From the NCBI GenBank assembly GCA_029762535.1, contig JARVGK010000003.1:1-64000 (forward strand): a stretch of DNA of 64,000 nucleotides, given 5' to 3'. A model generated the notes under the pieces. That model saw nothing but the letters and a program-made list of their open reading frames with translations. It was not told the DNA's origin and made no database searches. Source of the stretch: Thermoplasmatota archaeon. GTDB lineage: Archaea > Thermoplasmatota > Penumbrarchaeia > Penumbrarchaeales > Penumbrarchaeaceae. Below, piece after piece: positions 37,189-47,672 of the stretch (the first letter of the stretch is position 1; every line of letters begins with the position of its first letter). Position numbers and translations under genes: made by a program.

Positions 37189-38691
37189 ATGACAAGCATG
37201 AAAGACAATGGACCGAAGAAAAGGAGGGCATTCCCCAGGCGAATCCCCTCCCTGGATATCCCGTTGAGGATCCCGGAGCTCGAATGGACCAGCTTCCCGG
37301 AGCCGAAGCGCTATTTCACCTTCTTCTACTCGAAGAAGTACATCATTCTGGTCCTTATTCTGACACTTGCGACCTATCTTATCACCCAGGGGCAGAGCGA
37401 ACCCATAAGGAGGGTCGCCGCGATATTCGTCCTGGTCGCCGGGTGCTGGCTCTTCGAGATATTCCCGATATACATCACAGGGCTCATGGTCCCGGTCCTT
37501 CTGACGTTTGCCGGGATCTTCAAGCCGGCTCAGGCGTTCGAGCCCTTCGCCCATCCGGTGATATTCCTGCTAATCGGCGGCCTCACCCTGGGCCAGGCCG
37601 TGGTGAAGCACGGGATCGACAGAAGGATCGCTTTTTCCATACTGAGGTATTCCATGGGCAAGCTGGAAGGCGTCGTGATAGTCTCGATGCTGACCACGGC
37701 CTTCATCAGCATGTGGATATCCAACACCGTGGCGATAGCCATACTGCTCCCTGTGGTCCTCACCATACTAGCCTCCGTGCCCGATGATATGCTGCCTTTC
37801 AAGAGGAGGGTTCTCTTCGGAATGGCCGTGAGCGCCACCCTTGGAGGCATGGCCATGCTCACGGGCAGCACGCCGAACATGATCGTGGCAGCCCTTCTCG
37901 AGAGCAGGACCCCTTTCGGCTTCCTGCAGTGGGCATATTACGGGATCCCGGTCGTGGTCCTCTCCCTTGTCTCATCATATTTCATTCTCAAACGCCTCTT
38001 CAGAACGCCGGATGCGAAACTGGACCTGGGCAGGGTCATGGGCCAGAACCGGTCCGAGGGACCCATGGGCTTTTCGCAGAAGATGGTGATAGCGATATTC
38101 GGGTTCACGATCCTGCTGTGGTTCTTCGGGAGCCAGGCTGAGATATTCCTGGGACTGCCCTCGTCGATCTCGAGCGCCGCCATCGTTTCGATCCTGTCGG
38201 TCCTCGTGATGTTCGGATCGGGCCTTCTGGATATGAAGGACCTCAAGTCGATACACTGGGAGATCATGTTCCTGGTGGGTGGAGGGATCCTCCTGGGCGA
38301 GGCCATGGTGGAATCCGGGCTCGCGGGTGAGATAGGTGGCGCGGTGGCATCGACCAGTTCGTTCCTCCCGGTAGTCATGATGATCCTCCTGTTCACCCTG
38401 CTGACCATCGCCCTGACGAATTTCATTTCGAACAGCGCGACCGCGGCCATCCTGGGTCCGATCGCGATCGCCGCCTCGGATTCGATGGGGATGAACCCCA
38501 TACCTTTTGTCATGGGGATCGGACTCGGGGCGTCCGTAGCGTTCATCACCCCGGTCGGGACGCCTTCGACGGCCATGGTGTACTCCACTGGATTGATCCC
38601 CAAGGACATGCTCATCAAGTACGGCCTCATGATAGGGATCATAGTCGCCCTTGTGATATCTATCATAACGTTCATATTCCCGATACCCTGA
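37189..38691 (+). CDS. DASS/SLC13 family sodium-coupled anion symporter
   Basis: SMWISNT, GSTPN, NFISNSATA, TPVGTPSTA motifs; multiple TM helices. Confidence 0.92.
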   Translation: MTSMKDNGPKKRRAFPRRIPSLDIPLRIPELEWTSFPEPKRYFTFFYSKKYIILVLILTLATYLITQGQSEPIRRVAAIFVLVAGCWLFEIFPIYITGLMVPVLLTFAGIFKPAQAFEPFAHPVIFLLIGGLTLGQAVVKHGIDRRIAFSILRYSMGKLEGVVIVSMLTTAFISMWISNTVAIAILLPVVLTILASVPDDMLPFKRRVLFGMAVSATLGGMAMLTGSTPNMIVAALLESRTPFGFLQWAYYGIPVVVLSLVSSYFILKRLFRTPDAKLDLGRVMGQNRSEGPMGFSQKMVIAIFGFTILLWFFGSQAEIFLGLPSSISSAAIVSILSVLVMFGSGLLDMKDLKSIHWEIMFLVGGGILLGEAMVESGLAGEIGGAVASTSSFLPVVMMILLFTLLTIALTNFISNSATAAILGPIAIAASDSMGMNPIPFVMGIGLGASVAFITPVGTPSTAMVYSTGLIPKDMLIKYGLMIGIIVALVISIITFIFPIP

Positions 38692-38736
38692 GGTTCCCGG
38701 GAAGGTTTTTCATTGCCAGAGAGGTTACCCTCATCG

Positions 38737-39399
38737 ATGGAAACGATGAAAGGCGCTCGGTCGAGCGATATCGGCCCGGACCTGTTCCGGAAGCTGATCC
38801 AGGAATACTTCAGGACATGCGTCGATCTGGGGTGCGGGGACGGAAAATACTGCTACGAGATGGCGCGAACCGATCCCGATACGTTCTACATCGGGATCGA
38901 CGCCGACCGCAACGGTCTCGTCGAGTATTCAAGGAGGATAGTGAAAAAACCCTCGAGAGGGGGACTGAAGAACGTCCTCTATCTCATCTCGAACGTGGAG
39001 TCACTCCCCGAAGAACTCAATGGGATCGCGGATGAGGTCACGGTCATCCTGCCGTGGGGATCCCTTCTTCAGGGTATGGTGGGGTCCGATCCGCTGTATC
39101 TTTCTAACATCAGGAGGATCTCAAAGGACGGGTCACTCCTGAAGATCTATCTGAACTACGACGTCAAGTACGAGCCCGTCGAGATGGAGAGGAAAGGGCT
39201 GCCGGAGCTCACCGAGGGTTACGTTGAGGATCACATGGTCCCGGCATACGCTTCTGCGGGGATCCGGATCGCCGGATACCGCTTCATGGAGAACGAGGAG
39301 GCCAGATCGATCCCTTCGACCTGGACGAGGAAATTGGGTTTCGGCAGGGCCAGATCGACCCTTTTGATCGAGGGCGTCATCGAGGGGGGATCCCCCTGA
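38737..39399 (+). CDS. 16S rRNA (adenine-1408-N1)-methyltransferase, NpmA/KamB family homologue
   Basis: DLGCGDG, FYIGID, KKPSRGGLKNV, ESLPEELNGIAD, LPWGSLL, KGLPEL, STWTRKLGFGR match NpmA motifs as recalled; 220 aa from ATG 38737. Confidence 0.85.
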   Translation: METMKGARSSDIGPDLFRKLIQEYFRTCVDLGCGDGKYCYEMARTDPDTFYIGIDADRNGLVEYSRRIVKKPSRGGLKNVLYLISNVESLPEELNGIADEVTVILPWGSLLQGMVGSDPLYLSNIRRISKDGSLLKIYLNYDVKYEPVEMERKGLPELTEGYVEDHMVPAYASAGIRIAGYRFMENEEARSIPSTWTRKLGFGRARSTLLIEGVIEGGSP

Positions 39400-39806
39400 A
39401 GGCCTCCTTCACCTGTCGTGGGCATCCCAACATCAGAGCCGAACACAGCCGGACCATCGAGTTCACGAAGGATAAGGAGCTGACCGAGAGAGGGGATTGT
39501 ATCATCGGCGTCTCCTGCGACTTCGATCCGGAGGAATTGAAAAAGCTCTCCGGGAAGGTCTGGATAACGGTTCAGGTCGATGAGATGACGGACGGGTTCC
39601 GGGCCTACATCAATCCGAAATTCGATCAAGACAGGGAGATCGTGTTCCGAAAGAGCCGGGTGAGGACCCAAAGAACGCTTGGAACGGACCTGAACAAAGG
39701 GGCCTCAAAGCTCGAAAGGTCCATAGTCGAGAGGATGAGGGATCCGAATGCCGTGATGCATGTCGTGCTCGAGAGCAAGGGGGGGGCATCCTATGGGAAA
39801 GGATGA
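39396..39806 (+). CDS. DUF371 family protein (probable CTG start)
   Basis: The frame upstream of the listed ORF reads LKASFTCRGHPNIRAEHSRTIEFTKDKELTERGDCIIGV, the DUF371 signature. Confidence 0.85.
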   Translation: MKASFTCRGHPNIRAEHSRTIEFTKDKELTERGDCIIGVSCDFDPEELKKLSGKVWITVQVDEMTDGFRAYINPKFDQDREIVFRKSRVRTQRTLGTDLNKGASKLERSIVERMRDPNAVMHVVLESKGGASYGKG

Positions 39807-40536
39807 GGTCCGGGGATCCTACGATTCCTCATCCGAGTATTGGCTGAAGAAGAGCCGGGTCTCGGAGAGGTATCTGTCCCTCATCGAGGGATCCCTCGGA
39901 GAGGATATGACGGTCCTTGACCTCGGATGCGGAGGGGGCAGGATGTCGTTCCTGCTTGCAGGGAAGGCGAGGAGGATCGTGGGATGCGATCTTTCCCCCG
40001 CCCTTGTGGAAGGCGCAAGGGAGAAGGCAAAGGACCAACCCGGGATGGTATTCGTCCAGGGGGATCTCGAATCGCCCTCGGCATGGGATGATTGTTTGAA
40101 GGCCAACGACGGGGAGGAATTCGATATGATCATCTCTAACGTAGCTCTCCGAAAGGACGCTTTGAGGCTGGATCGCGTCCTTGACAATGCCGGGAGCGTT
40201 CTCGCTCCAAAGGGAAGGATCATCCTTAGGATCGAATCCTCGGGGGATCTCCCGGAGATCGGATGCCCCCTCCCATGCTATCACCTCAGGGAGGTGCGAT
40301 CCTCCTTTGAGGAAAGAGGATACAGGATAGAGCTTCTGGAGGAAGAGCGCTTCTCCCAGAGGTTCTCCTCCTTTTCGGCGTTTCGGGATTTCCTTGAGAG
40401 GACATCCCTCATGTCGCATCTGGTCGAGACCCATTCCATGGACAAGGCCCTTGACAGGGCCCGATCCCTTGAGGGCAGGGACGGGATAAGAGTGACCAGG
40501 AGCTACTGGATCGTCAAGGTCGATCCCACCTTGTAG
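39793..40536 (+). CDS. class I SAM-dependent methyltransferase
   Basis: VLDLGCGGG, GCDLSP, FDMIIS, LAPKGRI. Confidence 0.85.
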   Translation: MGKDEVRGSYDSSSEYWLKKSRVSERYLSLIEGSLGEDMTVLDLGCGGGRMSFLLAGKARRIVGCDLSPALVEGAREKAKDQPGMVFVQGDLESPSAWDDCLKANDGEEFDMIISNVALRKDALRLDRVLDNAGSVLAPKGRIILRIESSGDLPEIGCPLPCYHLREVRSSFEERGYRIELLEEERFSQRFSSFSAFRDFLERTSLMSHLVETHSMDKALDRARSLEGRDGIRVTRSYWIVKVDPTL

Positions 40537-46376: not shown

Positions 46377-47672
46377 CTATGGGTCCACTCTCTCGATGAT
46401 AGCCGCGAAGAAACCTGAACGATCATCTCCTGGCATCGGATGGAAATATGTTCCTCTGAACAGATCCTTTGGAAGATATGGAACCATGCCATCCGCTTGG
46501 ACCGGGTGGAACCCTTCGTTCTCCTTGAGGAAACGTTCCACTATCGATCCGTTCTCCGACTTGTCCATTGAACACGTCGAATACACGAGCCTCCCGCCGG
46601 GCTTCACGAGGTCGGAATAGGTCTTCAGTATATCGTACTGGACCATCGGGAAACGTTCCATGTCCTCCTGTTTCAGGTGGATCTTTATGTCGGGGTTGCG
46701 CCTCATCGTCCCCAGTCCTGAGCATGGGGCATCGACGAGGACGAGATCCGCCCATTCCCTGTACGGATCGAGCGATGAAGGATCCTTGACGTGGAGCCTC
46801 TGATAGTTCCAGATCTGAGCCCTTCTTCCCCTCTGTCTAAGGCGCTGGAGGCTCCTCTCGTTGGTGTCCATTGATATTAGCATCCCCCTGTTCTTCATCA
46901 AGGCGCTCAGGGCGAGGGTCTTGCCACCGTTCCCGGCGCAGGCGTCCACGACCTTCAGGCCTTCGATCCCTGCAAGGGCGATCCTGCAGGCGATCTGGGA
47001 GGAGATGTCCTGCACTTCGATCAGACCCTGCCTGTACTCCTCGAGATCGTCGATCCTGGTCCCGTCCGGGAGAAGGAACGCATCGGGATCCAGGTCCGTC
47101 ATCATCGGGGAGTTCACGACCTTCGATATGGACCGCATGACCTTATCCCTCGTTGAGAGCAGGGTATTGGTCCTGATGCCGATATATCTCGGATGTAAGA
47201 GGGAATCGGCCAGAGCATCGTATGCCTTCTCCTTACCGAGGGAATTGATAAGGGTGCTTGATATGAATTCCGGGACCGATGACGATGCAATATTATCAGA
47301 TACATCTTCCCTTCTATCTATCGATGTGATCGCCGGTAATATTTTCGATCTCTCGACCGTTGCCTTGATGGCCTTGCGCCTCTCCCAGAAAAGGTCATGG
47401 TCCTTGGGCATCTCCTTGAGGAACACCATCGATGCCGCCATGGCAAGCTCATTTGGATCGGCGCTGCCTATCTCTTTAGTGAAAATATGGTGCCATCTAA
47501 GGTAAGAATAGCACGATATGGCCACCCTTGACCTGCTGCGATCGTCCAGATTAGAGTATTTAAGGATCCGGTGCAGCGATCTGTTGGATTTCTCCCCGCT
47601 CAATACCGATGTGATGAAATCCTTCAGGTGAGGATGGAGCTTGAATGACCTTTTTCCGGAACGGGGTATCAT
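46377..47672 (-). CDS. RsmB/NOL1/NOP2 family RNA m5C methyltransferase
   Basis: EVQDISSQ, DACAGNGGKT, VDAPCSGLG, VYSTCS, GFFAA. Confidence 0.92.
   Translation of the reverse strand: MIPRSGKRSFKLHPHLKDFITSVLSGEKSNRSLHRILKYSNLDDRSRSRVAISCYSYLRWHHIFTKEIGSADPNELAMAASMVFLKEMPKDHDLFWERRKAIKATVERSKILPAITSIDRREDVSDNIASSSVPEFISSTLINSLGKEKAYDALADSLLHPRYIGIRTNTLLSTRDKVMRSISKVVNSPMMTDLDPDAFLLPDGTRIDDLEEYRQGLIEVQDISSQIACRIALAGIEGLKVVDACAGNGGKTLALSALMKNRGMLISMDTNERSLQRLRQRGRRAQIWNYQRLHVKDPSSLDPYREWADLVLVDAPCSGLGTMRRNPDIKIHLKQEDMERFPMVQYDILKTYSDLVKPGGRLVYSTCSMDKSENGSIVERFLKENEGFHPVQADGMVPYLPKDLFRGTYFHPMPGDDRSGFFAAIIERVDP

Follow-up and report, generated by a model that had tools for sequence, protein, structure and literature searches.

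A Three-Gene Operon Headed by an NpmA-Like Methyltransferase Gene

We analyzed a 64,000-nucleotide (nt) stretch of DNA, hereafter the window, which is part of a contig (C36) in the metagenome-assembled genome (MAG) of an uncultured Thermoplasmatota archaeon from sediment (GCA_029762535.1; 2.96 Mb in 102 contigs, with 93% completeness and 1% contamination). An initial annotation of the window had pointed to a gene resembling npmA and kamB, whose products methylate A1408 of 16S rRNA and confer aminoglycoside resistance. The gene is held in an open reading frame (ORF) spanning 38713-39399 (+); because relatives of the encoded protein open with ME(I/T)MKG, its start was assigned to the conserved ATG at 38737, which gives a protein of 220 amino acids (aa). 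The motifs quoted in the initial annotation were all found in this protein: DLGCGDG, FYIGID, KKPSRGGLKNV, ESLPEELNGIAD, PWG, GLPEL, and STWTRKLGFGR. Two further genes follow on the same strand, one encoding a DUF371 protein and the other a second methyltransferase, which we designated MT2 (Table 1).

Table 1. Features of the NpmA-like gene, its two partner genes, and the upstream spacer (window coordinates)
Feature	Position	Strand	Remarks
Spacer separating the CitMHS transporter gene from the trio	38692..38736	+	45 nt; read from sequence only
NpmA/Kam-family class I S-adenosylmethionine (SAM)-dependent methyltransferase gene (P0001, 220 aa)	38737..39399	+	Predicted 16S rRNA (adenine1408-N1)-methyltransferase
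Purine-rich, Shine-Dalgarno-like run GAGGGGGGATC	39381..39392	+	Lies 4-13 nt ahead of the DUF371 start codon, within the 3' end of the methyltransferase gene
DUF371 (PF04027) partner gene, 136 aa	39396..39806	+	CTG start overlapping the TGA stop of the methyltransferase gene
MT2, second class I SAM methyltransferase gene, 258 aa	39760..40536	+	Start possibly ATG 39793; overlaps the end of the DUF371 gene

The overlap between the NpmA-like and DUF371 genes, already recorded in the initial annotation, amounts to 4 nt (CTGA, 39396-39399): the TGA stop codon at 39397-39399 overlaps a CTG codon at 39396-39398 that opens the DUF371 frame, which runs to 39806 and in which none of the codons ATG, GTG, and TTG precedes 39537. 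The PF04027 profile scores 92 bits from 39411 on, solved relatives of the product are MTH639 (3CBN; E 1.2e-13) and 7Y7N, and the public protein collection contains the 136-aa product from this contig (P0241). At the corresponding start position, CTG is also found in a related metagenomic contig (L013), with ATG in two others (L014 and L015) and TTG in a fourth (L016). The 47 DUF371 codons that precede the first canonical start are 85% identical to those of L013, with a ratio of nonsynonymous to synonymous substitution rates (dN/dS) of 0.15, and are thus translated. The purine-rich run shortly before the CTG has a GGGG core that is invariant in all five aligned junctions, and it shows complementarity to the host 16S rRNA at its 3' end (GATCACCTCC); the run would serve DUF371 translation as a Shine-Dalgarno-like element. 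DUF371 is therefore likely to be translated via CTG initiation, or reinitiation, behind this conserved G-rich run. Alternatively, a -1 slip at CC_CCC_TGA would produce a fusion protein of ca. 356 aa, resembling the natural NpmA-DUF371 fusions described below.

MT2 matches the Pfam families Methyltransf_31/25/11. Its match to FtsJ (30.6 bits) was too weak to identify it as a 2'-O-methyltransferase, and a fold search with its AlphaFold2 (AF2) model (predicted local distance difference test score, pLDDT, 85) returned only generic small-molecule and RNA methyltransferases, with template-modeling (TM) scores of at most 0.57.

The order NpmA-like gene, DUF371 gene, MT2 is kept in L013, L014, L015, and L016, with the genes overlapping or almost abutting. 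Counting the window, the trio thus occurs in five loci of a nine-member clade (discussed below), and archaeal flanks were shown for three of them. The flanks, where visible, differ: AbiEii lies upstream in L016, riboflavin and nucleotide genes accompany the trio in L014, and mevalonate genes in L015. Comparison with L013 gave dN/dS values of 0.12, 0.18, and 0.24 for the NpmA-like gene, DUF371, and MT2, respectively; all three genes are under purifying selection. From this arrangement, the trio is predicted to be a translationally coupled operon in which the NpmA-like gene comes first.

A partial second copy of the module was found on a short contig of the same MAG (C73, 830 bp), where L019:545-830 is 88.8% identical at the nucleotide level to window positions 39663-39948. 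It spans the 3' end of DUF371 and the 5' end of MT2; homology begins abruptly within DUF371, and the sequence upstream is the end of an unrelated gene for a membrane-anchored protein. This copy is a paralogue that has been truncated, or else a strain variant that lacks the NpmA-like gene and was binned together with this genome.

The 220-aa Protein Belongs to the NpmA/Kam Family

Profile, sequence, and fold comparisons agree in identifying the product of the first gene as a genuine, intact member of the NpmA/Kam family, EC 2.1.1.180, as initially proposed. The Pfam profile PF24675 (NpmA) matches it at 236.6 bits (cut-off 60) over positions 2-213 of 214, and a whole-genome profile scan identified this locus as the sole match above the cut-off in the genome. 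In a phmmer search of the PDB, the top matches were the NpmA structures 3MTE and 3P2E (E 2.5e-46), with a single one-residue insertion or deletion over 212 residues; NpmB1, CacKam, KamB, UncKam, and Kmr followed at E 1e-36 to 3.5e-34, and all other proteins, TrmB among them, had E > 0.003. The AF2 model of the protein is of high quality (pLDDT 90.1; predicted TM score 0.89), although its linker regions are lower in confidence (pLDDT 60-79). When it was used as a Foldseek query, ranks 1 to 19 were occupied by m1A1408 enzymes only, with TM 0.94 and a root-mean-square deviation of 1.7 Å to NpmA (3MTE_A) and TM 0.91 to KamB; afterwards TM fell to 0.61 or below. The model has the class I methyltransferase fold together with the family-specific N-terminal hairpin and β5/6 and β6/7 linkers.

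The nearest other methyltransferase family is TrmB, the tRNA m7G46 methyltransferase (PF02390), which has the SAM-binding core in common with these enzymes (PMC3061052). Assignment to TrmB, or to a generic methyltransferase, was rejected: the protein reaches 35 bits with TIGR00091 (cut-off 112.65), its PF02390 match (38.8 bits) is confined to the N-terminal third, and the TM score is ca. 0.6. Thus, the grouping with TrmB or other methyltransferases that the initial annotation had named as fatal to its proposal is not what the profile and fold scores give. These relations to NpmA and KamB rest on hidden Markov model (HMM) and PDB scores; the trees described below were built from other homologues.

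None of the allele-level NCBIfam/AMRFinder models reached its cut-off (in bits, score/cut-off: NpmA 152.8/470, KamB 140.2/350, WarA 137.3/305, NpmB 127.8/460), and none of 120 homologues resembled NpmA peptides closely. The protein belongs to the family but is not one of the resistance alleles named NpmA, NpmB, KamB, or WarA. Judged from its sequence, the gene probably encodes a functional NpmA/Kam-family enzyme with the predicted m1A1408 activity, an estimate that takes in the partnership with DUF371 as well.

Catalytic and Docking Residues Are Conserved and the Host 16S rRNA Carries A1408

In the phmmer/PDB alignment, numbering of the archaeal protein equals that of NpmA to about residue 170 and is one lower thereafter. 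Seven residues that were tested in NpmA are conserved: D30, D55, E88, P106, W107, S194 (NpmA S195), and W196 (NpmA W197); of these, D30, W107, and W197 are essential in NpmA (PMC3061052). The acidic residues that bind SAM (NpmA D30, D55, and E88) are therefore all in place. Both tryptophans that stack on A1408 are likewise present, as initially claimed, with W107 and W196 aligning to their NpmA counterparts; the stacking tryptophans are essential in NpmA (PMC3061052) and in CacKam (PMC4705659). D30, D55, K71, P106, W107, and W196 are invariant over an alignment of 15 relatives. Residues for docking and base flipping are also kept, namely E146, R204 (NpmA R205), R206 (NpmA R207), K153 as a conservative replacement of NpmA R153, and the basic β2/3 linker (R66, R67, K70, K71, and R74). 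In NpmA, the corresponding residues serve to hold the phosphate of A1408 (with a glutamate in support), to contact the rRNA, and to form the 30S docking surface (PMC4705659).

The host has the target: a complete archaeal 16S gene that the bin carries on a different contig (C14) reads GCCCGTCAAACC, as does a second 16S fragment (C71), which in the E. coli register corresponds to G1401...C1407 A1408; both copies thus carry A1408. Just past this nucleotide, the two sequences differ in helix 44 (CCATCCGAG versus CCACCCGAG; L003:2839-2870 on C14 and L004 on C71), which points to a pair of rRNA operons or, alternatively, to heterogeneity of strains or organisms within the MAG.

The Partnership with DUF371 Recurs in Other Organisms

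The initial annotation had reported that the gene overlaps an archaeal DUF371 gene. This overlap is not incidental: the two genes form a conserved, sometimes fused partnership, seen in L013-L016 and in fusions elsewhere. In a survey of the best 150 of 1014 family representatives, eight were natural NpmA-DUF371 fusions of 343-380 aa (P0265 among them). One of the fusion clusters, with 130 members, is named Dehalococcoidia bacterium, and the gene for another fusion shares its bacterial contig with dnaN and a sigma-70 factor gene. Split pairs occur as well, in L026/L027 and L048, the former beside bacterial-type RsgA and PdtaS/ANTAR genes. Altogether, a PF24675 gene followed by, or fused to, PF04027 was found at the window, L013-L016, L026/L027, L046-L048, and in the eight fusions.

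The association extends to RsmI. In L046/L047, which represent a marine bacterium in two independent samples (L047 being a TARA scaffold), an NpmA-like gene is followed by one encoding a 440-aa DUF371-RsmI fusion (L046:4252-6239), the RsmI part of which matches TIGR00096 at 231.6 bits (cut-off 167.9). In another bacterial clade (L022/L023), an NpmA-like gene overlaps a plain rsmI, and a further bacterial homologue lies within an rpsP-rimM-trmD-rplS cluster. A stand-alone archaeal DUF371 gene is found among genes for eRF1, L37ae, DRG, and aIF5B. RsmI is the 2'-O-methyltransferase that modifies C1402 of 16S rRNA (Cm1402), and C1402 and A1408 are six nucleotides apart in helix 44. Given the closeness of these two nucleotides, the independent fusions and overlaps thus assign both the NpmA family and DUF371 to the decoding center.

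The DUF371 fold (3CBN) is that of an eight-stranded barrel in the RIFT-related group, for which no function is known (PMC4256011), and the ECOD paper PMC4256011 was the only mention of it in our literature search. The fusions are scattered over the family tree, with at least six changes and weak deep nodes, a pattern that could reflect either one ancient NpmA-DUF371 association or repeated fusion or fission. In the DUF371 tree, which is poorly resolved and thinly sampled, the partner-linked DUF371s may or may not form a clade.

Other associations were noted at these loci. In L026, the gene for RsgA, a bacterial-type small-subunit biogenesis GTPase, is convergent to the NpmA-DUF371 pair (L026:1346-2731). 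One family representative is a fusion of NpmA with a GNAT domain (Acetyltransf_3; P0283), and a GNAT gene of the same kind (L022:6463-7008) overlaps the 5' end of the NpmA-like gene located ahead of rsmI. The GNAT protein could be a ribosomal-protein acetyltransferase of the RimJ/RimL type or a drug acetyltransferase.

A Bacterial Methyltransferase Family in a Narrow Archaeal Lineage

The gene is rare among its host's relatives. This genome was the only one among 41 relatives with a PF24675 match above the cut-off. Wider sampling of the phylum gave the same picture, with PF24675 in 1 of 401 genomes (262 of high quality) and in none of the 23 other genomes of the same family. PF04027 was likewise found in 1 of the 401, with a profile that does detect DUF371 in M. 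jannaschii, H. volcanii, and S. acidocaldarius. The trio-type DUF371 is absent from 40 relatives, as is MT2 at E<=1e-8, save for one weak match of 35% identity.

A collection of 5.8 billion proteins contains eight close relatives of the NpmA-like protein, all metagenomic, at 56-82% identity. Beyond those eight, identity is at most 45% and the named proteins are all bacterial (Nitrospira, Dojkabacteria, Eubacterium, Herbivorax, and Acidobacteriota); a scan of genome contigs added one distant Acidobacteriota locus. The exhaustive HMMER search that yielded the 1014 cluster representatives (E<=1e-3) shows that the family, initially described from producers and pathogens, is not confined to them: most representatives come from environmental Acidobacteriota, Chloroflexota, and others. 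Large ESM Atlas clusters are 96-100% Bacteria for the NpmA family and 100% Archaea for DUF371; in essence, the former family belongs to bacteria and the latter to archaea. In two trees, the nine close sequences group as a single clade among bacterial sequences, with Shimodaira-Hasegawa-like approximate likelihood-ratio support of 96 and 100; these trees are unrooted and weak at their deep nodes.

Within the clade, L013 has downstream synteny in common with the window, L015 bears archaeal-type HMG-CoA synthase and thiolase genes, and the RibA encoded by L014 is 56% identical to that of this genome. Synonymous sites between the window and L013 are saturated (dS ca. 1.8) and the composition of the gene is host-like; thus, it has long been resident in a narrow lineage. 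The initial description of a long-resident archaeal gene therefore holds as far as a narrow lineage, host-like composition, and purifying selection are concerned; it does not hold for the phylum, given the single carrier among the 401 genomes, the absence from the rest of the family, and the position of the clade inside a bacterial family. The NpmA-like gene is an ameliorated accessory gene of a narrow archaeal lineage, most probably derived from bacteria.

Chromosomal Setting and Flanking Genes

RLI/ABCE1, an archaeal and eukaryotic protein, is encoded in the same window (808 bits), and its nearest named homologues, at 70-73% identity, are from Thermoplasmatota MAGs. The NpmA-like gene is thus truly in an archaeal chromosome, which upholds the archaeal setting initially assigned to it. 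That the contig is a mis-binned bacterial one was rejected in view of RLI/ABCE1, the downstream synteny with L013, and the archaeal-type genes in L015. An RsgA-like ORF, unexpected for an archaeon, was seen elsewhere in the MAG (G000:C10:22776-23525; 37% identity over residues 199-453).

Two further statements of the initial annotation proved correct. The composition of the NpmA-like gene (GC 0.57, GC at third codon positions 0.76, codon-adaptation index 0.72) falls within the range of the neighboring genes, and the ORFs scanned between 32.6 and 50.6 kb contain no integrase or transposase family. Carriage by plasmids or viruses was looked for and not found: there was no tblastn match to the gene among 72,556 plasmids (PLSDB), and the protein matched IMG/VR viral contigs at the level of the SAM motif only. 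The gene therefore differs from acquired mobile 16S rRNA methyltransferase genes, which are carried by a plasmid, transposon, integrative and conjugative element (ICE), integron, or virus.

Directly upstream of the trio lies a gene for a transporter of the CitMHS/Na-sulfate-symporter family (37189-38691, +), for which 24 relatives have no orthologue, only paralogues of 24-32% identity. The spacer between this gene and the trio contains a T-rich stretch, TTTTTCAT, ca. 25 nt 5' of the ATG, possibly an archaeal TATA element. A scan for bacterial-type promoters found nothing on the + strand, bacterial promoter and terminator models being uninformative for an archaeon. Downstream, a large surface protein resembles proteins of the relatives only through a repeated C-terminal domain, and the 37-46 kb stretch as a whole is a lineage-specific, variable region. 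An RNA m5C methyltransferase gene of the RsmB/NOL1/NOP2/Sun type lies 6 kb downstream of the trio (46377-47672, -), with nothing to indicate a link between the two.

Discussion

By homology with NpmA, the enzyme would dock on the assembled small ribosomal subunit via its basic β2/3 linker. A1408 would then be flipped out of helix 44, its base held between the two tryptophans and its phosphate by an arginine, and the methyl group would pass from SAM to N1. DUF371 may partner this decoding-center rRNA methyltransferase by aiding recognition of the subunit or by controlling activity. The module appears to have been acquired horizontally, then ameliorated and kept under purifying selection; it looks like an accessory module gained by horizontal transfer rather than a classic mobile resistance gene. 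On balance, by analogy with NpmA, we think it probable, with no great margin of confidence, that the protein uses SAM to methylate N1 of the A1408 equivalent on assembled archaeal small subunits, following the NpmA mechanism and partnered by DUF371.

The initial annotation had left two roles open, a resistance reservoir or a housekeeping rRNA modifier. Because many homologues sit in ribosome-biogenesis contexts, an intrinsic modification role is favored; judging from these contexts, the rRNA modifier would be the better description. Most likely, the module serves primarily to build a modification into the decoding site, and the host would, as a likely consequence, be insensitive to aminoglycosides that require A1408 to be unmodified. 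More tentatively, and with less confidence than we place in the activity itself, DUF371 may be a dedicated partner of helix 44 methyltransferases (the NpmA family and RsmI), as subunit or domain. In that case, some archaea and many uncultured bacteria would make m1A1408 natively, under control of the partner, and the clinical enzymes would be partner-less escapees of this system.

Several observations weigh against this interpretation. A gene present in 1 of 401 phylum genomes cannot be housekeeping in the usual sense. Since the allele models fall far below their cut-offs, function is extrapolated over ca. 60% sequence divergence, within a family for which Witek and Conn described mechanistic differences (PMC4705659). 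All that is known of subunit recognition was learned with bacterial 30S subunits. For DUF371, the start codon (CTG) is noncanonical. The trees are unrooted and their deep nodes weak, which makes the direction and number of transfers tentative. The fusions with DUF371 are open to another reading, as a resistance device in two parts, and NpmA-GNAT fusions exist too.

In one alternative, the gene is chiefly an aminoglycoside resistance determinant, selected by aminoglycoside-producing neighbors in the sediment such as actinomycetes, with DUF371 and MT2 having auxiliary resistance functions or mitigating cost. All characterized family members do give high-level resistance (PMC3061052; PMC4705659), and the sporadic accessory distribution, with a single carrier in the phylum sample, is typical of resistance genes. 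The region is variable, with transporter and surface-protein genes that have no orthologues in relatives, and the GNAT associations (the fusions and the gene beside the NpmA-like one in L022) could be stacked resistance functions. Yet homologues are fused to, or embedded among, core ribosome-biogenesis genes (rsmI; the rimM-trmD-rplS cluster), the locus has no mobile element, the family's archaeal member was not found on PLSDB plasmids or viral contigs, and neither an aminoglycoside biosynthesis gene nor another resistance gene is adjacent. We therefore regard a primarily resistance-driven origin as unlikely, though it deserves to be kept in view.

It is less probable still that the nine-member clade has drifted to another substrate, such as a different rRNA adenine, a tRNA, or a site created by MT2, and no longer forms m1A1408. 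Identity to NpmA is only ca. 41%, every curated allele-level cut-off was failed, the new partners DUF371 and MT2 could retarget the enzyme, and archaeal 30S proteins near the decoding site differ from bacterial ones. Against this, the base-stacking, phosphate-holding, and 30S-docking residues are all kept without gaps, the fold is far closer to NpmA (TM 0.94) than to TrmB (ca. 0.6), the host 16S rRNA contains the target sequence GCCCGUCA, and the genomic links to RsmI, whose target is six nucleotides away, point to the same helix. As for an artifact, either a bacterial contig mis-binned into the archaeal MAG or a decaying relic, we find it very hard to credit. The assembly is fragmented into 102 contigs with an estimated 1% contamination, its two 16S fragments differ slightly, and part of the module recurs in truncated form on a short contig; but RLI/ABCE1, with its Thermoplasmatota homologues, is on the same contig, L013 supplies downstream synteny and L015 archaeal-type HMG-CoA synthase and thiolase genes, and the ORF is intact, host-like in composition, and constrained (dN/dS 0.12).

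A1408 methyltransferases have been studied almost solely as pan-aminoglycoside resistance enzymes of producers and pathogens. The locus indicates that the family has crossed into Archaea, that purifying selection maintains it there, and that it forms a unit with DUF371, for which this is a first testable functional context. It further suggests that the family naturally serves to tune the decoding site as an intrinsic function, resistance being a by-product. Uncultured sediment archaea appear, from sequence, to be carriers of a functional-looking resistance-type gene; with ca. 41% identity to NpmA and no mobility genes, this gene is not a proximate clinical reservoir.

Comparison with Known Systems

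Among known enzymes, NpmA (from plasmid pARS3 of E. coli ARS3; 3MTE, 3P2E, and 4OX9) is the best match in both sequence and structure, and at 219 aa it is nearly the same length. Unlike npmA, the gene described here belongs to an archaeal chromosome, has neither IS26 nor an ICE around it, and is coupled to the genes for DUF371 and MT2. The origin of npmA was left open in PMC12271512; for this reason, and because identity is ca. 41%, the archaeal gene is not the source of clinical npmA. KamB, CacKam, Kmr, NpmB1, and UncKam (3MQ2, 4X1O, 4RWZ, 7EHF, and 7JLZ) belong to the same Pfam family and have the same fold (TM 0.75-0.91), with 28-34% identity in structural alignments. All five come from bacteria, whether producers or environmental species, and no DUF371 partner is reported for them in the literature searched. 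CacKam, Kmr, and UncKam are, as here, chromosomal and from non-clinical organisms.

The closest parallels in organization are the bacterial homologues coupled to DUF371 or RsmI (L022, L023, L026, L035, L046-L048, P0265, and others), which show the same partnership, adjacent or fused. The archaeal locus differs from them in its host, in its split pair with a CTG start overlapping the stop codon, and in its third gene, which encodes the class I methyltransferase MT2 rather than an RsmI-type TP_methylase. Our literature search, which included PMC3061052, PMC12271512, and PMC12195208, found no report of an archaeal NpmA homologue. Its occurrence in an archaeon is unusual, yet explicable by gene transfer. 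What is new here is thus the archaeal host, the split three-gene form, MT2 in the place of RsmI, and the coupling through a CTG start.

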